From IMG/VR virus record IMGVR_UViG_2574180220_000001: a stretch of DNA of 15,630 nucleotides, one strand, 5' to 3'. This stretch comes from a virus (taxonomy: Duplodnaviria; Heunggongvirae; Uroviricota; Caudoviricetes). Positions 1 to 15,630 of this stretch are shown in pieces (within the stretch, counting starts at the first letter, position 1; the number at the start of each line of letters is the position of its first letter). The notes beneath the pieces were generated by a model. The model was not told the DNA's origin and ran no database searches. It worked only from the letters and a program-made list of their open reading frames with translations. The translations under genes and the position numbers were made by a program.

Positions 1-1284
1 TTACTTCTTCGCCTCTGCAACCACTTTACTACCCACGCCGCGGTTATTGTATTCCCACATGCGGTTGTAGTTAGTGTCATTCAGATTGCGCTGTATTTCG
101 TCGTTATCATCTACGCTGCCGGTATTACCCGCAAACGGACGATTAGAGATCACCGCATCGGCCCACGGTTTAGCCGTGTTAAAACCTTCGTTGATGGCGC
201 TATCACGGATCACCACCTGACCGTTGGTATTGGCATCAACATCCAGCGAGCGGCCCAGTTGCGCCACACCATCACCGAAAGCATTGAAACGGCTGTTTAC
301 GGCGAGGAAACCGTAGTAAATGTTGGACAGCGTAGCCGGTGCAAACACATACGCTTCTTGCTGAGTACGTGAGTTCACCACGCGGAATTCGGTGTTATCG
401 AACACCACTGCGCCGCGACCAGAAACGATATCCACATCCCCTTCAATGTAGCTGTTGGTCACCAGCGTACGCGGCTGACGATTCGTTTCCAGACGGTTCT
501 GCACACCGCTGTTGGTGACAAAGAAGGTGTTCTGACGACCGAGAATGTTAACGTTGTTAATCTGTACCTGGTCACCATCAGTACGCAGTGCCACCGCCGG
601 ATGGTTACCTGCATCTACGCTATCGCCCAGCGTGTTTTCGATGGTCAGATTTTGCAGTTGCAGGCCATTGTTTTGTGACCAGAAGACCGCAGAGCAGAGA
701 ACACCGATACTGTCGCTGCGTTTGCTCTGGCAGCTATCGTACATATACCACGCTGGTTTACCTGGCATATATTTGCCGCGCGGGTTGACGTCGTGACGCC
801 AGTCGGCAGGGCTCATGCCACCATCAAGGGAAAGCCCAATCTTCACATCAATCGGTTTTTCACCTGTACCGTACAGAGTAATTCCACCCGGAGCGGCAGG
901 GACATATACCGTTCCCTGATACTCACCAGGCATCACGGCAATATACTGGCGCTTGTTGGTACGCTTGATAATTGCCGCATCTACCGCCGCCTGAATCGTG
1001 GTATGCGTTACACCTTGAGTGCCCGCCGGGCCGACAACAAAGTCAGGTTGCGCAGGCAGGGTAATCGGGGAAGGATTCCACGCTGCTGCACCTGGTGTCA
1101 GGGATGCAAAATAGTGTTGAGCATCGAAATTCTGCGCTTCTTTTGCCGACAGAATCGGGCGAGAAGAGGTACCAGGCGCGGTTTGATCAGAAGGACGTTG
1201 ATCGGGCGGGGTTGAGCTACAGGCGGTCAGCGTCACGCCAAAAGCCAATGCCAGCGCCAGACGGGAAACTGAAAATGTGTTCAC
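1..1284 (-). CDS. ybhC: YbhC-like outer-membrane lipoprotein (pectinesterase-fold, acyl-CoA thioesterase family)
   Basis: 427-aa ORF with lipoprotein signal (LALAFGVTLTAC); matches my recollection of E. coli YbhC, which flanks lambda attB on the gal side. Stop codon is at window position 1-3. Confidence 0.85.
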   Translation of the reverse strand: MNTFSVSRLALALAFGVTLTACSSTPPDQRPSDQTAPGTSSRPILSAKEAQNFDAQHYFASLTPGAAAWNPSPITLPAQPDFVVGPAGTQGVTHTTIQAAVDAAIIKRTNKRQYIAVMPGEYQGTVYVPAAPGGITLYGTGEKPIDVKIGLSLDGGMSPADWRHDVNPRGKYMPGKPAWYMYDSCQSKRSDSIGVLCSAVFWSQNNGLQLQNLTIENTLGDSVDAGNHPAVALRTDGDQVQINNVNILGRQNTFFVTNSGVQNRLETNRQPRTLVTNSYIEGDVDIVSGRGAVVFDNTEFRVVNSRTQQEAYVFAPATLSNIYYGFLAVNSRFNAFGDGVAQLGRSLDVDANTNGQVVIRDSAINEGFNTAKPWADAVISNRPFAGNTGSVDDNDEIQRNLNDTNYNRMWEYNNRGVGSKVVAEAKK

Positions 1285-1323: not shown

Positions 1324-1418
1324 GAAGCCTGCTTTTTTATACTAAGTTGGCATTATAAAAAAGCATTGCTTATCAATTTGTTGCAACGAACAGGTCACTA
1401 TCAGTCAAAATAAAATCA
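1324..1418. other. Prophage attL (B-O-P'): lambda core GCTTTTTTATACTAA at 1331-1345 followed by the P' arm with Int arm-type sites and an IHF site
   Basis: Seen directly: 15-bp lambda att core, then GTTGGCATTATAAAAAAGCATTGCTTATCAATTTGTTGCAACGAACAGGTCACTATCAGTCAAAATAAAATCATTAT, matching the lambda P' arm; it abuts the 3' end of int. Confidence 0.9.
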
Positions 1419-2489
1419 TTATTTGATTTCAATTTTGTCCCACTCCCTGCCTCTGTCATCACGATACTGTGATGCCATGGTGTCCGACTTATGCCCGAGA
1501 AGATGTTGAGCAAACTTATCGCTTATCTGCTTCTCATAGAGTCTTGCAGACAAACTGCGCAACTCGTGAAAGGTAGGCGGACCCCCTTCGAAGGAAAGAC
1601 CTGATGCTTTTCGTGCGCGCATAAAATACCTTGATACTGTGCCGGATGAAAGCGGTTCGCGACGAGTAGATGCAATTATGGTTTCTCCGCCAAGAATCTC
1701 TTTGCATTTATCAAGTGTTTCCTTCATTGATATTCCGAGAGCATCAACATGCAATGCTGTTGGGATGGCAATTTTTACGCCTGTTTTGCTTTGCTCGACA
1801 TAAAGATATCCATCTACGATATCAGACCACTTCATTTCGCATAAATCACCAACTCGCTGCCCGGTAACAACAGCCAGTTCCATTGCAAGTCTAAGCCAAC
1901 ATGGTGATGATTCTGCTGCTTGATAAATTTTCAGGTATTCGTCAGCCGTAAGTCTTGATCTCCTTACCTCTGATTTTGCAGCGCGAGTGGCTGCGACCGG
2001 GTTTGTTGTTATATGGCCTTCAGCTATAGCCTCTCGGAATGCATCGCTCAGTGTTGATCTGATTAACTTGGCTGATGCCGCCTTGCCCTCGTCTATGTAT
2101 CCATTGAGCATTGCCGCAATTTCTTTTGTGGTGATGTCTTCAAGTGGAGCATCAGGCAGACCCCTCCTTATTGCTTTAATTTTGCTCATGTAATTTATGA
2201 GTGTCTTCTGCTTGATTCCTCTGCTGGCCAGGATTTTTTCGTAGCGATCAAGCCATGAATGTAACGTAACGGAATTATCACTGTTGATTCTCGCTGTCAG
2301 AGGCTTGTGTTTGTGTCCTGAAAATAACTCAATGTTGGCCTGTATAGCTTCAGTGATTGCGATTCGCCTGTCTCGGCCTAATCCAAACTCTTTACCCGTC
2401 CTTGGGTCCCTGTAGCAGTAATATCCATTGTTTCTTATATAAAGGTTAGGGGGTAAATCCCGGCGCTCATGACTTCGCCTTCTTCCCAT
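1419..2489 (-). CDS. int: Lambda-type tyrosine integrase Int
   Basis: 356-aa ORF (MGRRRSHERRDLPPNLYIRNNGYYCYRDPRTGKEF...) essentially as I recall lambda Int; 3' end adjacent to attL and 5' end overlapping xis, as in lambda. Confidence 0.97.
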   Translation of the reverse strand: MGRRRSHERRDLPPNLYIRNNGYYCYRDPRTGKEFGLGRDRRIAITEAIQANIELFSGHKHKPLTARINSDNSVTLHSWLDRYEKILASRGIKQKTLINYMSKIKAIRRGLPDAPLEDITTKEIAAMLNGYIDEGKAASAKLIRSTLSDAFREAIAEGHITTNPVAATRAAKSEVRRSRLTADEYLKIYQAAESSPCWLRLAMELAVVTGQRVGDLCEMKWSDIVDGYLYVEQSKTGVKIAIPTALHVDALGISMKETLDKCKEILGGETIIASTRREPLSSGTVSRYFMRARKASGLSFEGGPPTFHELRSLSARLYEKQISDKFAQHLLGHKSDTMASQYRDDRGREWDKIEIK

Positions 2490-2685
2490 TTCTGATCCTC
2501 TTCAAAAGGCTACCTGTTACTGGTCGATTTAAGTCAACCTTTACCGCTGATTCGTGGAACAGATACTCTCTTCCATCCTTAACCGGAGGAGGGAATATCC
2601 TGCACTCGCGTACCCATCGACGAACTGTTTCAAGGCTTCTTGGGCGTCGCTGGCGTGCGTTCCACTCCTGAAGTGTCAAGTACAT
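2467..2685 (-). CDS. xis: Excisionase Xis
   Basis: 72-aa ORF MYLTLQEWNARQRRPRSLETVRRWVRECRIFPPPVKDGREYLFHESAVKVDLNRPVTGSLLKRIRNGKKAKS, matching lambda Xis; overlaps int start. Confidence 0.95.
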   Translation of the reverse strand: MYLTLQEWNARQRRPRSLETVRRWVRECRIFPPPVKDGREYLFHESAVKVDLNRPVTGSLLKRIRNGKKAKS

Positions 2686-2711
2686 CGCAAAGTCTCCGCA
2701 ATTACACGCAA

Positions 2712-2735
2712 GAAAAAACCGCCATCAGGCGGCTT
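2712..2735 (-). terminator. Putative intrinsic terminator hairpin (GCCGCC-UGAU-GGCGG followed by U6 on the minus-strand transcript)
   Basis: Seen in sequence: GC stem with 4-nt loop and a run of six T on the minus strand; overlaps the stop codon of the 55-aa ORF upstream of xis. Confidence 0.4.
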
Positions 2736-2892
2736 GGTGTTCTTTCAGTTCTTCAATTCGAATATTGGTTACGTCTGCATGTGCTATCTGCGCCCACAGC
2801 ATCCAGTGGTCATAGCAGTCGCTGATGTTCTCGGCTTCGATAACTCTGTTGAATGGTTCTCCATTCCATTCACCTGTAACTCGGAAGTGCAT
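2725..2892 (-). CDS. Small hypothetical protein (lambda orf-55-like), 55 aa
   Basis: Hand-translated minus-strand ORF MHFRVTGEWNGEPFNRVIEAENISDCYDHWMLWAQIAHADVTNIRIEELKEHQAA; below the 60-aa cutoff of the ORF track. Size and position between xis and ea8.5 match lambda. Confidence 0.6.
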   Translation of the reverse strand: MHFRVTGEWNGEPFNRVIEAENISDCYDHWMLWAQIAHADVTNIRIEELKEHQAA

Positions 2893-2980
2893 TTATCATC
2901 GCCATAAAACAAAACTCGCCGTAGCGAGTTCAGATAAAAGAAATCCCCGCGAGTGCGAGGATAGTTACTTGTTCATATTA

Positions 2981-3376: not shown

Positions 3377-4105
3377 TTATAGCTCCTTTAATCGAGGCGG
3401 TTCTGGTAGAGGCATCCAGTGGGTTACACCGCCAATTGGCTCATCGTCGTCGTACTCCAATGCGGCTATATAGAACCCGTCACGACGAGAATAAGAAATC
3501 CCGGACATTACAATGCCATCCGAAACAACAATAATGTCACCCGTTTCTTTCGGCATTCGCTCACTACAGCTTATCCAACCATCCGGAGTCACCGGAAGCG
3601 AGAACGGCAGCACATCTCTGTGAACAAGTTTTTGCTGTGACAGGTTATCCAGAACTTTCTGTACTGCTGCATCACCGAATACACCAAGCGCATCTGCCAT
3701 AACTCCTACAACCTGATAAGCCTCAGCGCATACCGTGGATAAACCATCCGGAATTACCGGAGAGTTACGGTCCTTGCGGTAAATCCGGCATGTACAGGAT
3801 TCATTGTCCTGCTCAAAGTCCATGCCATCAAACTGCTGGTTTTCATTGATGATGCGGGACCAGCCATCAACGCCCACCACCGGAACAATGCCGTTCTGCT
3901 TATCAGGGAAGGCGTAAATTTCTTTCGTCCACGGATTAAGGCCGTACTGGTTGGCGACGATCAGCAATGCGATGAACTGCGCATCGCTGGCATCACCTTT
4001 AAATGCCGTCTGGCGAAGAGTGGTGATCAGTTCCTGTGGGTCGACAGAATCCATGCCGACACGTTCAGCCAGCTTCCCAGCCAGCGTTGCGAGTGCTGTA
4101 CTCAT
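3377..4105 (-). CDS. Chimeric ORF: N-terminal ~115 aa of Bet (Red-beta annealing protein) fused in frame to a non-Bet C-terminus ending in a DUF551-like motif (VTHWMPLPEPP)
   Basis: Residues 1-115 (MSTALATLAGKLAERVGMDSVDPQELITTLRQ...NESCTCRIYRKDRN) match lambda Bet; the sequence then diverges completely (SPVIPDGLSTVCAEAY...GGVTHWMPLPEPPRLKEL). No exo gene lies downstream. Junction near plus coordinate 3760. Confidence 0.8.
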   Translation of the reverse strand: MSTALATLAGKLAERVGMDSVDPQELITTLRQTAFKGDASDAQFIALLIVANQYGLNPWTKEIYAFPDKQNGIVPVVGVDGWSRIINENQQFDGMDFEQDNESCTCRIYRKDRNSPVIPDGLSTVCAEAYQVVGVMADALGVFGDAAVQKVLDNLSQQKLVHRDVLPFSLPVTPDGWISCSERMPKETGDIIVVSDGIVMSGISYSRRDGFYIAALEYDDDEPIGGVTHWMPLPEPPRLKEL

Positions 4106-4110
4106 CCGTT

Positions 4111-4527
4111 TTATACCTCTGAATCAATATCAACCTGGTGGTGAGCAATGGTTTCAACCATGTACCGGATGTGTTCTGCCATGCGCTCCTGAAACTCAAC
4201 ATCGTCATCAAACGCACGGGTAATGGCTTTTTTGCTGGCCCCGTGGCGTTGCAAATGATCGATGCATAGCGATTCAAACAGGTGCTGGGGCAGGCCTTTT
4301 TCCATGTCGTCTGCCAGTTCTGCCTCTTTCTCTTCACGGGCGATCTGCTGGTAGTGACGCGCCCAGCTCTGAGCCTCAAGACGATCCTGAATGTAATAAG
4401 CGTTCATGGCTGAACTCCTGAAATAGCTGTGAAAATATCGTCCGCGAAATGCCGGGCTGATTAGGAAAACAGGGAAGGGGGGTAGTGAATGCTTTTGCTT
4501 GATCTCAGTTTCAGTATTAATATCCAT
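4111..4527 (-). CDS. gam: Gam (RecBCD inhibitor), 138 aa
   Basis: [15 protein letters not shown]...[10 protein letters not shown] matches lambda Gam; internal Met (MNAYYIQ) corresponds to the GamS start. Confidence 0.95.
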
Positions 4528-4625: not shown

Positions 4626-4758
4626 TTTTTGGGACTCCTGGCTGATTAAGTATGTCGATAAGGCGTTTCCATCCGTCACGTAATTTACGGGTGATTCGTT
4701 CAAGTAAAGATTCGGAAGGGCAGCCAGCAACAGGCCACCCTGCAATGGCATATTGCAT
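4594..4758 (-). CDS. cIII: CIII (FtsH/HflB inhibitor), 54 aa
   Basis: Hand-translated [54 protein letters not shown] with AAGGAG Shine-Dalgarno; below the ORF-track size cutoff. Confidence 0.9.
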   Translation of the reverse strand: MQYAIAGWPVAGCPSESLLERITRKLRDGWKRLIDILNQPGVPKNGSNTYGYPD

Positions 4759-4785
4759 GGTGTGCTCCTTATTTATACATAACGA

Positions 4786-6097: not shown

Positions 6098-7180
6098 TTA
6101 GAACTGGTAAACCATACCTACAGCAACGATATCATCGGTAGCAACGCCAGATGCTTTCGTGAAATCGCTCTTATCAATCAGGTTGATTTTGTAGTCAACA
6201 AAAGTGGACATATTTTTGTTGAAGTAATAGGTTGCACCTACATCAACATATTCAACCAGGTCCTGATCACCCCAAACACCCAAGTCTTTTCCTTTAGAAT
6301 GCAGGTAAGCAACGGATGGACGCAGGCCGAAGTCGAACTGATATTGTGCAACAGCTTCGAAGTTTTGTGCTTTGTTGGCAATATGGTTATTACCAAAAAC
6401 AGTCATGTTCTGGGTTTCAGAATAGGTGGTAGCCAGATAGATGTTGTTCGCATCATATTTCAGACCAGCTGCCCATACTTCAGCATTTTGACCAGAAGCA
6501 TTCAGACCGTTGTTACCGTAGATAACCTGATTATTAGTGCGATCAGATTTAGCATAGGTTGCACCCACGCCGAATCCTTCATACTCATAAGTAGTTGAGA
6601 AACCGAAACCATCGCCATTAGCTTCAGTTACTTCATTTCGGTCATTTTTGCCCTGATACTGAGCTGCAAAGTTCAGGCCATCAACCAGACCAAAGAAGTC
6701 GTTGTTACGATAAGTTGCAACACCTGTGGTGCGACCAGTCATGAATACATCTGTTTGGGTCCAGGTATCGCCACCGAATTCTGGCAGAACGTCGGTCCAT
6801 GCACCGATGTCGTATGCTACACCGTAGTTACGGCCGTAATCGATGGAGCCGTAGTCACCGAATTTCAGGCCAGCGAAGGCAAGACGGGTTTTATCTTTGG
6901 AGGAACCTTGAGATTCAGCGCGGTTGCCTTTGAATTCATATTCCCACTGACCGAAACCAGTCAGTTGATCGTTGATTTGGGTTTCACCTTTGAAGCCAAG
7001 ACGGGCATAAGTAGTATCACCATCATCTGCATCATTAGAGGAGAAGTAGTGCTTGGCATTAACTTTCCCGTACAGATCCAGCTTGTTACTGTCTTTATTA
7101 TAAATTTCAGCTGCCTGAGCAGACATCGCCATCAGTACTGATGCAGCTACAGCAGAAATTGCCACTGTTAATTTTTTCAT
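6098..7180 (-). CDS. nmpC: OmpC-family general porin, prophage-encoded NmpC/Lc-like, intact (360 aa)
   Basis: Signal peptide [23 protein letters not shown], porin motifs ([57 protein letters not shown]), C-terminal VYQF. Position between Q and the holin matches the lc/nmpC moron of PA-2/DLP12. Confidence 0.85.
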
Positions 7181-7641: not shown

Positions 7642-7769
7642 GAGTCTCGATATTAGCTGATAACCCAATACCTGAGTTATTCACTGACTCCGAGTCTGTT
7701 ACGTTTCTGCTTTTTTGCGATACGTTGTATTCCCTCAATTTACACCCGCTTTGTCTGCGAGGTGGGGTT

Positions 7770-8971: not shown

Positions 8972-9265
8972 TTATTGTGAGCAATACACACGCGCTTCCA
9001 GCGGAGTATAAATGCCTAAAGTAATAAAACCGAGCAATCCATTTACGAATGTTTGCTGGGTTTCTGTTTTAACAACATTTTCTGCGCCGCCACAAATTTT
9101 GGCTGCATCGACAGTTTTCTTCTGCCCAATTCCAGAAACGAAGAAATGATGGGTGATGGTTTCCTTTGGTGCTACTGCTGCCGGTTTGTTTTGAACAGTA
9201 AACGTCTGTTGAGCACATCCTGTAATAAGCAGGGCCAGCGCAGTAGCGAGTAGCATTTTTTTCAT
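8972..9265 (-). CDS. bor: Bor lipoprotein (serum-resistance, Iss-like lysogenic conversion protein), 97 aa
   Basis: MKKMLLATALALLITGCAQQTFTVQNKPAAVAPKETITHHFFVSGIGQKKTVDAAKICGG... matches lambda Bor; lipobox LITGC. Confidence 0.9.
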   Translation of the reverse strand: MKKMLLATALALLITGCAQQTFTVQNKPAAVAPKETITHHFFVSGIGQKKTVDAAKICGGAENVVKTETQQTFVNGLLGFITLGIYTPLEARVYCSQ

Positions 9266-11205: not shown

Positions 11206-11775
11206 ATGGAAGTCAACAAAAAGCAGCTGGCTGACATTTTCGGTGCGAGTATCCGTACCATTCAGAACTGGCAGGAACAGGGAATGCCCGTTCTGCGAGG
11301 CGGTGGCAAGGGTAATGAGGTGCTTTATGACTCTGCCGCCGTCATAAAATGGTATGCCGAAAGGGATGCTGAAATTGAGAACGAAAAGCTGCGCCGGGAG
11401 GTTGAAGAACTGCGGCAGGCCAGCGAGGCAGATCTCCAGCCAGGGACTATTGAGTACGAACGCCATCGACTTACGCGTGCGCAGGCCGACGCACAGGAAC
11501 TGAAGAATGCCAGAGACTCCGCTGAAGTGGTGGAAACCGCATTCTGTACTTTCGTGTTGTCGCGGATCGCAGGTGAAATTGCCAGTATTCTCGACGGGAT
11601 CCCCCTGTCGGTGCAGCGGCGTTTTCCGGAACTGGAAAACCGACATGTTGATTTCCTGAAACGGGATATCATCAAAGCCATGAACAAAGCAGCCGCGCTG
11701 GATGAACTGATAACGGGGCTAAAGCGCAGGCGCTCACTATCAACAAGGATGAGGTTAACTCAACTGTTGATTTAA
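11206..11775 (+). CDS. nu1: Terminase small subunit Nu1 with its C-terminus replaced (first ~170 aa lambda-like, last ~19 aa unrelated)
   Basis: MEVNKKQLADIFGASIRTIQNWQEQGMPVLRGGGKGNEVLYDSAAVIKWY... matches lambda Nu1 up to ...KAMNKAAALDELI, then diverges (TGLKRRRSLSTRMRLTQLLI); no terminase large subunit gene follows. Confidence 0.85.
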   Translation: MEVNKKQLADIFGASIRTIQNWQEQGMPVLRGGGKGNEVLYDSAAVIKWYAERDAEIENEKLRREVEELRQASEADLQPGTIEYERHRLTRAQADAQELKNARDSAEVVETAFCTFVLSRIAGEIASILDGIPLSVQRRFPELENRHVDFLKRDIIKAMNKAAALDELITGLKRRRSLSTRMRLTQLLI

Positions 11776-12428
11776 CTCTTACAAAACAAACAGGGACTGG
11801 AAATCGTTTTGTTTTACAGAACTTAGGTAATACAGAACTATCATTTGCCGCAAAAGTATGGGGATCAAGTGATCGACAAAACGTTTTTGAGGTTGGAACG
11901 TCTGCTGCGTATCTGTTTTATGCGCAAAAAACGTCAGCAGGCCAGTTGTTTGATGTAAATGGCGCTATTAATTGCACAACGCTGAATCAGTCATCAGACC
12001 GCGACCTTAAAGACGATATTCTCGTTATCAGCGACGCGACGAAAGCAATCCGTAAAATGAACGGATACACCTACACGCTCAGGGAAAACGGGATGCCTTA
12101 TGCTGGCGTTATTGCACAGGAAGTAATGGAGGCGATACCAGAAGCTGTGGGATCGTTTACTCATTACGGTGAAGAGTTGCAGGGACCAACGGTTGACGGC
12201 AATGAATTACGTGAAGAAACACGTTATCTGAATGTTGACTACGCCGCCGTGACGGGGTTACTTGTTCAGGTCGCCCGTGAAACAGATGGTCGCGTTACCG
12301 CGCTGGAAGAGGAAAACATAACGCTACGTAAAAATCTGGCAACAGCAGGCACCCGGATCAGCACTCTGGAAAATCAGGTAAGCGAACTGGTTGCACTTGT
12401 CCGGCAGTTAACAGGAAGCGAACATTGA
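11706..12428 (+). pseudogene. C-terminal fragment of a tail fibre / tailspike gene carrying a peptidase S74-type intramolecular chaperone domain; no own start at the junction
   Basis: Frame is open from the nu1 junction; contains the autoproteolysis-type motif SSDRDLKDDI followed by NGYTYTLRENGMPYAGVIAQEVMEAIPEAV and a C-terminal coiled-coil-like segment. Track reports only the Met-initiated part, 11946..12428. Confidence 0.6.
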
Positions 12429-12473
12429 TATCCTTCAAGCCCTGAAGGAGGCTGTTCCCGGTACGTTCAGACT

Positions 12474-12608
12474 GTTGTTGGGCTGGAGATCGCAACGGAG
12501 GAAGAAAACTCGTTGCTGGAAGCCTGGAAAAAGTATCGGGTGTTGCTGAACCGTGTTAATACAACAACTGCACCGGATATTGAATGGCCAGTAGCACCTA
12601 TAGGGTAA
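12474..12608 (+). pseudogene. 3' fragment of a tail-fibre assembly gene (Tfa-like C-terminus), no start codon
   Basis: Hand-translated: ...[41 protein letters not shown], resembling the conserved Tfa C-terminus (lambda Tfa ends ...[26 protein letters not shown]... as I recall); same frame as the preceding ORF, directly after its stop. Confidence 0.6.
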
Positions 12609-12692
12609 ATTCGTAATGATTACCTAAATACGTTATTCTTTTGTTCAAAAAGTGATTTTGCTATAGGTAGGGAGTATGTTCTTGGATTAAGA

Positions 12693-12724
12693 ATAAAAAA
12701 TCGCCATGAAAGAGCTTCATGGCG
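12693..12724 (-). terminator. Hairpin with U-tract on the minus strand (CGCCAUGAA-loop-UUCAUGGCG then AUUUUUU)
   Basis: Seen in sequence: 9-bp stem followed by a T-run on the minus strand, inside the AT-rich non-coding region; no obvious upstream minus-strand gene. Confidence 0.3.
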
Positions 12725-13467
12725 AGTACATAAACGTACAAAATGTGATGAAAGTAGAGTGGCGTAAGCCACTATATTAAGATATGACAATAGCGAAGAA
12801 AAGTAAATAACATTTTATGGACGTTTAATTGTTAATTATAAAAACTAGAGTGCCCGATATTGTTTATCTTGCTTTAAAATAATGTACTCAAACCAAATTT
12901 TTGAGCTAAAAGCTCAAATAATATAAATGCAATGATAATGTTTAATAAGACAATTAGCTTGCTTTGTATTTTCATTTCGGAATACTGTTAAGTAACTTTG
13001 ATGACCCTAACAATAGATCGGAATTTTCTTAGGGTCAATGGTCAATGTTTTTGCTTGCAAAGCAAATGTTTTGGTGGTTATAAGTTGTCTTAATATAGTC
13101 ACGCATGCAACTTGTTCCATGCGGAGATTAAAGATTGGAATATAACGCGAAGATGGAATTAAATTACATTTGCAATAACCAATTTATTATTACTCAATAA
13201 TTACCGATATTATTATTGTAAATTAATCATTAGAGTGCAAAAAGAAATGTAACGGCAAAATAAGAGGACGATAGCTGAGAAAAAAGCGTGCTTTCCCAAT
13301 CTGGGGCAAATCACGTCTGAATGACACCTGAAAACAGGTGGTAGCCTCAAGAAGGCTTGGAATATTCTTCTTTAATGTTATGTAATTCATTGATTTTTCG
13401 TGTACGATTTTAAGACATTTATTCCAAGAAAAATTTTTAACTCTTTGATTTTTCGACTCTGTATCAT

Positions 13468-13529
13468 CGGTCTCGAAAACCGGAGTAGGGGCAACTCTAC
13501 CGGGGGTTCAAATCCCCCTCTCTCCGCCA
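13468..13529 (+). tRNA. Partial tRNA-Ser (CGA anticodon; serU-like) 3' portion only (anticodon arm, variable arm, T-arm, acceptor 3' strand, CCA); 5' part absent
   Basis: GGTCTCGAAAACCGGAGTAGGGGCAACTCTACCGGGGGTTCAAATCCCCCTCTCTCCGCCA matches the 3' two-thirds of E. coli tRNA-Ser(CGA) as I recall it; upstream sequence cannot pair to form the acceptor or D arms. Confidence 0.7.
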
Positions 13530-14104
13530 CTTTATCAATGACTTATCTCCCGACTTCCCGCCTTGCTTTTCCTAAACAGAACAATCGTAGAATATTCTTG
13601 AAGGGTTAGATCGTCACTGTTTTCTGTTCGATACTGTGACATTCAGCACTTGATTCGCTATGGATCTGACAGGAAGGTTTTGAGCGAAAATTTGCAGTTA
13701 TTCAGTTGTTTTCTTATCGGTCACCATTATTCTTTTAGACATTGATCCTACAAAGCTGCCGCAAAGTTGGTGGTGGGAACTGAAGTTGCGTAGAGAAGGG
13801 GTCAATACCCGGAGGCAAACATGGGCTGGCAAAAGTGTAGCGGTATTAGGCGCAGCTATTTAGCCTAGTTATGTTTTATGAAAACTTGATATCATATAAG
13901 TGTCTTACTTATTGGCTGTAAATAAGTTTTTCCTAAGGAATTGTTTCTTGAGTATCATTTGTAACTGTAACGGAATTTATAATCCTTTGCTTTATTGTTA
14001 CGGTATTTTTTATCACACCCTATTTTTTATGTGGTTTTTTATACTGAAGTTTGGCAAAGTGAACTTTATATGCATATACTTCATCCTGGTTTCAGTTAAG
14101 TTGG

Positions 14105-14857
14105 GTGGATGATATGGCAACTACATGTTCAGTTATATTGATTTTGGAGTCCTTTGATGTTTATTTCGGAAAAGAGAGTGTGTTTCTGGAGAGAGGTTCA
14201 TCTGTACTTGTCGACTCTAGCTCTAGAGATTTTTTCCTGACATATCCTGAAAGAGTGATAGTGGCGGATTTTGGCGCTGAGTTTATTAGTCGCTATTTGA
14301 AAGCTAATAACTTAAGGGATATTTCTGATTGTAGGGAATATCCATCTTATTTAAAAATAAACTTTGCTGACTTCAGTTTAATTAAAGGATTAATTAGTTG
14401 GGCTAATCACTGTGCTGAATACATAGAAATTTTTGATGAGTCTATTGCTTTTACATGTCTCTCTGCATTTTCTTCTGAAAAACAATTTGGAGTATTTCTG
14501 TTTGAATGTTTGAAAAGCACAGGGGCTAAAGTTAAAACGATTATTCATACGGATTTATCTGCACCATGGCGTCTTAAGGATATATCATCAAGATTATATC
14601 TCAGCGAAAGTTTACTAAAGAGGAAATTGAAAGAAGAGGGGGTATCATTCAGTAAGATCATACTTGATGAGAGGATGCAAATGGCTGAATATTTACTCAG
14701 CACTCGTTGTTATCCTATTAGTAAAGTAGCTAAGGTCTGTGGTTATGCCAGTGTTTCATACTTTACTTATGTATTTAGACGTTATTTTGGTGTTTCTCCA
14801 AGTCAATACTCTCAGAGCAGTTCAGAAAGTAAAATTCTTACTCACCAGGGAATCTGA
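14105..14857 (+). CDS. AraC/XylS-family transcriptional regulator (YdeO/AppY/GadX-like), 250 aa
   Basis: C-terminal double helix-turn-helix region (PWRLKDISSRLYLSESLLKRKLKEEGVSFSKIILDERMQMAEYLL...VAKVCGYASVSYFTYVFRRYFGVSPSQY) typical of AraC family; AT-rich codon usage consistent with horizontally acquired DNA. Confidence 0.85.
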   Translation: MDDMATTCSVILILESFDVYFGKESVFLERGSSVLVDSSSRDFFLTYPERVIVADFGAEFISRYLKANNLRDISDCREYPSYLKINFADFSLIKGLISWANHCAEYIEIFDESIAFTCLSAFSSEKQFGVFLFECLKSTGAKVKTIIHTDLSAPWRLKDISSRLYLSESLLKRKLKEEGVSFSKIILDERMQMAEYLLSTRCYPISKVAKVCGYASVSYFTYVFRRYFGVSPSQYSQSSSESKILTHQGI

Positions 14858-15351
14858 TCATTGTTCTTGCCCCCTTATTTCCAGACAGGGGGTGTATCTT
14901 AAGTTAACGTTACCCGCTGACGTCGATATTCTCGCGGAGAGCGATAACCCAACGCACTGTGCGGATGGTTTTCATTGTAATGTTCGATCGCCACTGCAAG
15001 ATTATGCAATGCCGTTCTTACATTCGGTTTCGGCATGAACGCGATGTAGTCTTCCTTCATCGTTTTCACGAACCTTTCTGCCATTCCATTACTCTGAGGA
15101 CTGCTGATTGCCGTTGTGCAGGGCTCCAGATTCAACTCTCTGGCGAACTGCCATGTTTCATGCGCTCTATACGCTGAACCGTTATCTGTCAGCCACTGGA
15201 TGGACTGTTCCGGTACTTTATCGCCAAAGCGTTTTTCTATCGCTCCTAACATGACATCCTGCACTGTCGCTTTATCGTAACCTCCCGTGCTTGCGGCCCA
15301 GTCTATGGCTTCACGATCGCAACAGTCCAGGGCGAACGTAACACGCAGTTT
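14858..15351 (-). mobile_element. Truncated IS2-like element (IS3 family): terminal inverted repeat plus the 3' half of orfB
   Basis: Terminal sequence TTGCCCCCTTATTTCCAGACA resembles the IS2 end; minus-strand ORF fragment [24 protein letters not shown]...[50 protein letters not shown]...[14 protein letters not shown] resembles the IS2 OrfB integrase core. The 5' part is cut off at about 15351. Confidence 0.7.
14899..15351 (-). pseudogene. IS3-family (IS2-like) transposase OrfB, C-terminal fragment
   Basis: DDE/rve integrase-core motifs ([25 protein letters not shown]); the frame is open upstream of the reported Met but lacks the N-terminal half. Confidence 0.7.
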
Positions 15352-15630
15352 TGAATCGCCACGGGTTTAACAGACACCTCAGAGTCATTTAAGATGGCTT
15401 AAAGAGAGGTGCCCATGAGCGGTAAGCGTTATCCCGAAGAGTTTAAAACTGAAGCAGTCAAACAGGTTGTTGATCGCGGTTATTCTGTTGCCAGCGTTGC
15501 AACACGTCTCGATATCACCACCCACAGCCTTTATGCCTGGATAAAGAAGTACGGTCCGGATTACTCCACTTTTTCATCAAGCCAATCCGCCCACCACTGC
15601 ATCATTTCTCTGCGCTTATCGAAATACTGA
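15352..15630 (+). mobile_element. Left end of a second IS3-family element (IR beginning TGAATCGCCACGGG) with orfA; continues beyond the window
   Basis: IR-like terminus starting with TGA about 63 bp upstream of an orfA-type ORF; inserted into the IS2-like orfB. Family assignment by general resemblance only. Confidence 0.6.
15415..15630 (+). CDS. IS3-family transposase OrfA (HTH protein), possibly truncated or frameshifted at its C-terminus
   Basis: MSGKRYPEEFKTEAVKQVVDRGYSVASVATRLDITTHSLYAWIKKYGPD... is a typical IS3-family OrfA N-terminus with a helix-turn-helix; ATG at 15415 preceded by AGAGAGG. The tail (YSTFSSSQSAHHCIISLRLSKY) lacks the usual leucine-zipper-like segment. Confidence 0.6.
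   Translation: MSGKRYPEEFKTEAVKQVVDRGYSVASVATRLDITTHSLYAWIKKYGPDYSTFSSSQSAHHCIISLRLSKY

Follow-up and report, generated by a model that had tools for sequence, protein, structure and literature searches.

The window analysed here, a stretch of viral DNA of 15,630 nucleotides, belongs to an E. coli chromosome and holds a whole decayed lambdoid prophage of ~14 kb at lambda attB, between ybhC and ybhB. It opens at its left edge with ybhC (positions 1-1284, minus strand), after which come attL, int (1419-2489, minus) and xis. To the right of xis lie remnants of the early region, in which a lambda cIII thermoregulator (4713-4771, minus; Rfam RF01804, 88.5 bits) adjoins kil and cIII. An OmpC/NmpC-like porin gene (6098-7180, minus) sits as cargo between a Q remnant and the lysis genes essD-rrrD-rzpD to its right, and bor (8972-9265, minus), which encodes a serum-resistance lipoprotein and is likewise cargo, has ybcV, ybcW and one packaging gene to its right. 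The lysis and bor genes are of the type found in DLP12, and most replication, packaging and tail genes have been lost. The end of a tail-fibre gene and a tfa fragment then lie to the left of ~860 bp of AT-rich b-region DNA (12609..13467, 31% G+C), which contains no credible ORFs and no annotated gene in its APEC O78 counterpart.

Collinearity of the window with APEC O78 at a simple offset was confined to positions 11707-15630. Relative to APEC O78, the window prophage is without an IS2 copy and without 5.3 kb of terminase, tail-tip, lom and tail-fibre DNA (junction at ~11707-11718), and a stretch of 708 nt (3767-4474) in the window has no APEC O78 counterpart. Among the complete genomes, none matched the entire window as one piece, and the best of them covered 95% of it in three to five pieces.

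The right end of the window is a mosaic of short segments around a single intact gene, which we identify below as patE. The mosaic starts with the 3′ 62 nt of a tRNA-Ser(CGA) gene (13468..13529, plus strand), an attR-type scar without tRNA function, followed by 278 bp of core E. coli chromosome (13530..13807, plus), a host DNA fossil inside the phage b region, and by an IS630-family fragment of ~55 nt (13808..13862) that forms the left edge of the patE cassette. The native upstream region of patE (13870..14113, plus), whose first ~9 nt are the end of a phage Q gene, leads into the coding sequence (14114..14857, plus; 247 aa plus stop, allele E131/S235). Behind it are a partial ISEc48 (IS3 family, IS2 group; 14862..15349, minus), consisting of the right inverted repeat and the 3′ part of orfB, antisense to patE, and the left end of a second IS3-family element with a truncated orfA (15350..15630, plus; ATG at 15415), which reaches the window end. 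The latter matched HTH_Tnp_1 at 54.6 bits and is a partial "transposase" in RefSeq, and the same fragment adjoins attP-int in phage ev099. Just past the right end of the window lie attR, ybhB and bioA, and patE is the last intact prophage gene before attR.

The open reading frame of the regulator spans 14105-14857 on the plus strand, is intact and encodes 250 aa if read from a GTG at 14105. The likelier start is the in-frame ATG at 14114, 9 nt downstream, which yields 247 aa, because a Shine-Dalgarno-like GGGTGGA stands 4-5 nt upstream of it, RefSeq WP_000246057.1 starts there and all homologues begin there; the GTG itself falls inside that GGGTGGA. The stop codon is a TGA at 14855-14857. With a G+C content of 34.9%, and of 29-31% in the upstream DNA, the gene differs markedly in composition from ybhC in the same window (53%). 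Its intactness was reflected in full-length, ungapped alignments with homologues and in dN/dS values of 0.16-0.34, and an intact patE was found in ~650 of 5,426 complete E. coli genomes, 597 of which carry it at ≥99% identity.

Two kinds of alternative gene model were discarded. A 70-aa ORF upstream of patE (13900-14112) was dismissed, being AT-rich, unannotated and seen only within a frameshift fusion, and "long forms" of 306-308 aa were rejected as IS-free alleles, as they arise either where a frameshift lets translation continue into the IS remnant or where patE is joined to a spurious upstream ORF. Frameshift alleles of 307-308 aa (P0016 and P0020; window region 14800-15038) do occur in some public assemblies, where PatE continues for ~75 aa on the strand antisense to the orfB remnant of ISEc48; P0020 was present on 16 contigs, one of them of 1.3 Mb.

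As the criterion for the AraC/XylS family, we used a C-terminal DNA-binding domain of ~100 aa with two helix-turn-helix motifs. The window protein matched Pfam HTH_AraC at 60.7 bits (cut-off, 26.6) and HTH_18 at 57.8 bits (cut-off, 33.6), the latter match covering residues 161-237 of the 250-aa ORF (numbered from GTG 14105). The best NCBIfam model was YdeO, which aligned over the full length at 148.7 bits versus a curated cut-off of 348 for that equivalog (NF007407), with GadX second, aligned over the C-terminal half only at 109.2 bits versus a cut-off of 500 (NF007432). In BLASTP searches against the K-12 proteins (NC_000913), full-length alignments were obtained with YdeO (34.7% identity), GadW (33.5%) and AppY (28.8%, over 233 aa), while GadX and EnvY aligned over the C-terminal DNA-binding half only. 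Within the AraC/XylS family, the protein belongs to the YdeO/GadW branch, of which it is a phage-borne representative. It is related to YdeO, GadX and AppY but is none of them; AppY holds an analogous prophage position and is not orthologous. The original prediction of an intact AraC-family regulator of the YdeO/AppY/GadX type in AT-rich DNA was thus upheld by the Pfam and NCBIfam matches, the full-length homologue alignments and the base composition, the kinship being of the YdeO/GadW/AppY kind.

A far closer relative was found among the prophages of O157:H7. The window protein is 99.2% identical (245/247 residues) to ECs_0287 of prophage Sp1 in strain Sakai, from which it differs by G131E and R235S. 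In EDL933, the protein with the same accession as Sakai ECs_0287 (WP_000246059.1) is the product of the sole AraC-family gene of the thrW prophage (OI-8/CP-933H), and PatE is z0321 on OI-8 of that strain (PMC10877973, a review). From the strain, the island, the uniqueness of the gene and this secondary source, we equate z0321 with ECs_0287 with high confidence. Synteny agreed with protein identity, as window positions 13467-15335 are collinear with Sakai, TR01 and Z0117 at 99.2%, the IS junction included. The upstream region, the tRNA scar and the ISEc48 junction of the O157:H7 gene (CP-933H/Sp1, OI-8) are the same as those in the window, whereas the host prophage is different: that of the window is ev099-like, lambdoid and inserted at lambda attB, while O157:H7 and other strains have an e14/Mu-tail-type remnant with pinE at thrW/yagP, at whose right end the module sits. 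The left neighbour of the module differs between the two from 13467 leftwards.

The chromosomal acid-fitness-island regulators YdeO and GadW, and also GadX, have a two-domain architecture in common with PatE; YdeO and GadW are core chromosomal genes, whereas patE is phage-borne and not core. We know of no EvgAS-type upstream signal for PatE. According to the literature, PatE and YdeO/GadW have a common target set in gadE and hdeAB (PMC10877973, PMC10057817), and a 2023 study of AppY counted PatE, PsrB and AppY itself among the AraC regulators that prophages encode and that control the AR2 system (PMC10057817). AppY of DLP12 in E. coli K-12 is a prophage-encoded AraC-family activator of AR2 and gadE (PMC10057817). 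Like patE, appY occupies the right-hand end of a lambdoid prophage, after the tail-fibre-assembly genes, but it has another integration site and other flanks, and no IS remnant abuts it.

We found that the 3.1-kb module travels in viable phages as well. Window positions 12483-15630 are 99% identical to isolated phages ev099 and mEp332, and 11985-15630 are 98.3% identical to isolated phage PhiR70_1, the identities spanning 98.3-99.3% across the three. Each of these phages has tail fibre, tfa, AT-rich DNA, patE, two transposase fragments, attP, int and xis in this order. Furthermore, the int-xis region of ev099 corresponds to window positions 1331-2967 at 99.5%, and therefore, given the shared module, the window prophage is a decayed ev099-like phage with patE in its b region. 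Lying in isolated phages between the tail-fibre genes and attP-int, and preceded by a conserved promoter-like site, patE has the attributes of a lambdoid moron and of b-region cargo. Its presence in prophages and isolated phages bore out the expectation that the gene is prophage- or island-borne, and the homology searches did not lead to a core chromosomal regulator with conserved synteny.

The downstream flank of patE is occupied by the IS remnant, as had been proposed. After the stop codon come a spacer of 4 nt (TCAT) and, from 14862, an inverted-repeat end; from this position on, 488 nt align at 70% identity with the right end of IS2, the terminal ...TGTCTGGAAATA.GGGGCAA included. The Sakai counterpart is curated as "ISEc48 Family: IS3 partial" and begins 5 nt past the end of the CDS. 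The 118 aa that the remnant still encodes on the minus strand scored 61.1 bits with rve_3 and 180.7 bits with the IS2 TnpB subfamily, and this DDE (rve) orfB, together with the IS2-like terminal inverted repeat, assigns it to the IS3 family, IS2 group (ISEc48). A complete element would have both inverted repeats, orfA and orfB, and only ~488 nt of the orfB (3′) end is left here; RefSeq marks the ISEc48 CDS as partial. The ISEc48 stump is a dead remnant. The gene-IS junction is base-for-base identical in four E. coli genomes with two prophage contexts, and was also present in the three isolated phages at 98-99% identity. Because of this identity across two prophage contexts and near-identity in isolated phages, the IS junction is an old, fixed part of the module and not a local event.

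To see what the IS had replaced, we turned to homologues that are free of it. The IS-free homologues P0021, P0022 and P0025, whose proteins are 84%, 79% and 54% identical, respectively, immediately follow Q, the antiterminator gene, in lambdoid phages. In P0021 and P0022, for which the contig continues downstream, a holin gene comes next, 170-185 bp away, with no IS, and a hairpin and T-run terminator (GCCAGCATTATTGCTGG-T8) is situated between the regulator gene and the holin gene. At the DNA level, the window and the homologues begin to match 9 nt ahead of the Q stop codon (window 13870) and cease to match shortly after the stop codon of patE; in the locus L006, from the Q-holin slot, the homology starts at 7752, and Q ends at 7760. 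The C-terminus of the protein, which the IS end might have altered, is native, because the 79% homologue stops at the same residue (...IITHEEI* versus ...ILTHQGI*). Since the IS-free homologues are single-gene morons between Q and holin, what the IS replaced is the terminator of patE and the connection to phage lysis DNA rather than a target operon. We detected no convincing terminator 3′ of patE in the window, the native one being gone.

Compared with the window gene, the PatE-like regulators of the Q-holin slot are of the same length, show full-length homology (47-84%), keep the promoter block and are AT-rich single-gene morons as well. They differ in that no IS is nearby and the two closest keep their terminator, whereas the window gene is located in the b region and bounded by IS debris. 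In ~926 further E. coli genomes, we noted a 243-aa paralogue of ~52% identity in the Q-holin region (L005 5665-6395; P0027-P0030), which is annotated only as "helix-turn-helix domain-containing protein" and is frameshifted in strain JS316; this group may include PsrA/PsrB.

The upstream side of the cassette carries a record of a different kind. The scar at 13468-13529 is the exact 3′ 62 nt of the 90-nt tRNA-Ser(CGA) gene, identical to positions 29-90 of the BL21 tRNA-Ser, a gene which we take to be serU in K-12 naming; ARAGORN predicted no tRNA and Rfam no RNA family near patE. The part of the module common to Sp1 begins exactly at this scar (13468). Several strains show a third junction type (H138-H144), in which the tRNA-Ser fragment before the patE module is 9 bases longer than in the window and Sp1. 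Virtually all of the 5,426 genomes have the next segment, 13530-13807, at ~97% identity in its native place just downstream of tRNA-Ser(CGA), and it is collinear with the serU-yodB DNA of BL21 until collinearity ends at 13807/13808. Positions 13808-13862 then match an annotated IS630-family transposase gene at 92.9% (H95), so that the patE cassette has IS debris on either side.

The same arrangement of scar and host DNA was recognised at an attachment site. In strain MLI114, a lambdoid prophage occupies native serU beside zinT; its attR junction (L010 6834-7368) is 98.9% identical to window positions 13273-13807, and the last ~195 nt of the AT-rich segment 12609..13467 equal the right end of this prophage. 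The tRNA-Ser scar and the 278 bp of host DNA are packaged in the isolated phages ev099, mEp332 and PhiR70_1. The scar would most simply be read as flanking host DNA captured by a phage that was formerly integrated at serU, and the patE cassette, which extends from the end of Q through the 4 nt after the stop codon, was presumably cut out of a Q-holin slot. We put forward, tentatively and at somewhat less than even odds, that the module is a host-DNA capture fossil: a serU-integrated phage would have excised aberrantly, as in specialised transduction, and taken along patE beside the att site, and viable phages that integrate elsewhere (lambda attB, thrW) would now spread the module. A donor layout of intact serU, flank, IS630 fragment and patE gave no full-length match in the 5,426 genomes.

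Next, we considered how the gene could be expressed and what it could do. A promoter-like site, TTGGCA-18-TATACT, was found at 14051-14080, scoring 10/12, and both hexamers are invariant in the homologue loci L006 and L007, whose proteins are 84% and 79% identical. In O157:H7, ECs0287 is up by log2 2.91 (~7.5-fold) in early stationary phase (PMC2241611). PatE has been reported to activate gadB, gadC, gadE and hdeAB in trans and to raise acid resistance, acting through a cis element of the hdeA promoter (−132 to −45), and microarray data showed six LEE genes to be negatively regulated (PMC10877973). The mechanism we propose for the window allele is drawn by analogy from this published orthologue, from which it differs at 2 of 247 residues. 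By that analogy, the conserved promoter of patE itself would drive its transcription, with induction as cells enter stationary phase; PatE would use its C-terminal double helix-turn-helix to bind AT-rich promoter DNA in trans and would switch on the acid-fitness island (gadE, gadBC and hdeAB, the last via −132 to −45 of the hdeA promoter), thereby raising acid resistance, and in LEE-positive strains it would probably lower LEE gene expression. The hdeA-gadE target DNA is present in 5,417 of the 5,426 E. coli genomes. Taken together, we assign a probability of about 85% to the reading that the window gene is an intact patE, a stand-alone phage moron that acts in trans on chromosomal acid-resistance genes.

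The two residues at which the window allele departs from O157 PatE were inspected for their distribution. Codon 131 (14504-14506) specifies Glu in the window and Gly in O157 PatE as well as in six phage-borne homologues down to 47% identity, while the K-12 paralogues have Asn, Thr or Tyr at this position. Codon 235 (14816-14818) specifies Ser in the window and Arg in O157 PatE. The isolated phages ev099, mEp332 and PhiR70_1 have Glu131 as in the window, but Glu137 and Arg235. It is conceivable that the Glu131 allele of these phages differs in activity from the Gly131 allele of O157.

This substitution enters into one alternative, namely that patE is a silent or weakened relic, in which a dying prophage, repression of AT-rich DNA, Glu131 and the loss of the terminator leave little regulatory effect. 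H-NS silences AT-rich DNA, and an ORF of 35% G+C would be subject to it. The prophage has indeed been stripped of most replication, packaging and tail genes, a Gly conserved across the phage-borne subfamily has given way to Glu, no terminator follows the gene, and frameshifted or read-through alleles exist elsewhere (XJ55 and P0016/P0020). Yet the Glu131 allele is also that of three isolated phages, which argues against its being crippling, the ORF has stayed intact at ≥99% identity in 597 genomes, the promoter hexamers are conserved and dN/dS is well below 1. Moreover, the O157 orthologue has the same IS junction and likewise no terminator, and its mutant nevertheless has a phenotype according to the review (PMC10877973). 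On balance, we regard a relic with little regulatory effect as unlikely, and favour a functional patE.

Many AraC-family regulators adjoin their own targets, and here an IS end abuts the stop codon and the DNA once downstream is gone. The original prediction had taken patE for a local regulator orphaned when its cognate downstream operon (for an adhesin, virulence or acid resistance) was cut away or displaced by the IS. This part of the prediction was not supported, and we consider such orphaning highly improbable, since all three IS-free homologues examined follow Q as stand-alone morons, with holin next and beyond a terminator in the two with downstream contig and with no cargo operon, so that what was lost is a terminator and lysis DNA, since two prophage types have an identical junction and three isolated phages a nearly identical one, and since the published targets are distant chromosomal loci (PMC10877973).

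With patE read as an intact, trans-acting moron, the protein that RefSeq labels just "AraC family transcriptional regulator" (WP_000246057.1) can be named PatE and its gene patE. Both the gene and its function were already known, and the outcome is a renamed annotation rather than a discovery. In the ~12% of complete E. coli genomes that have it, strains of the APEC O78 type and others, patE predicts an extra input to glutamate-dependent acid resistance. Mild novelty lies only in the capture record of the module, not in the gene: a known fitness regulator travels on viable lambdoid phages in a scarred module, whose tRNA half-site, host DNA and three IS fragments would record its capture.
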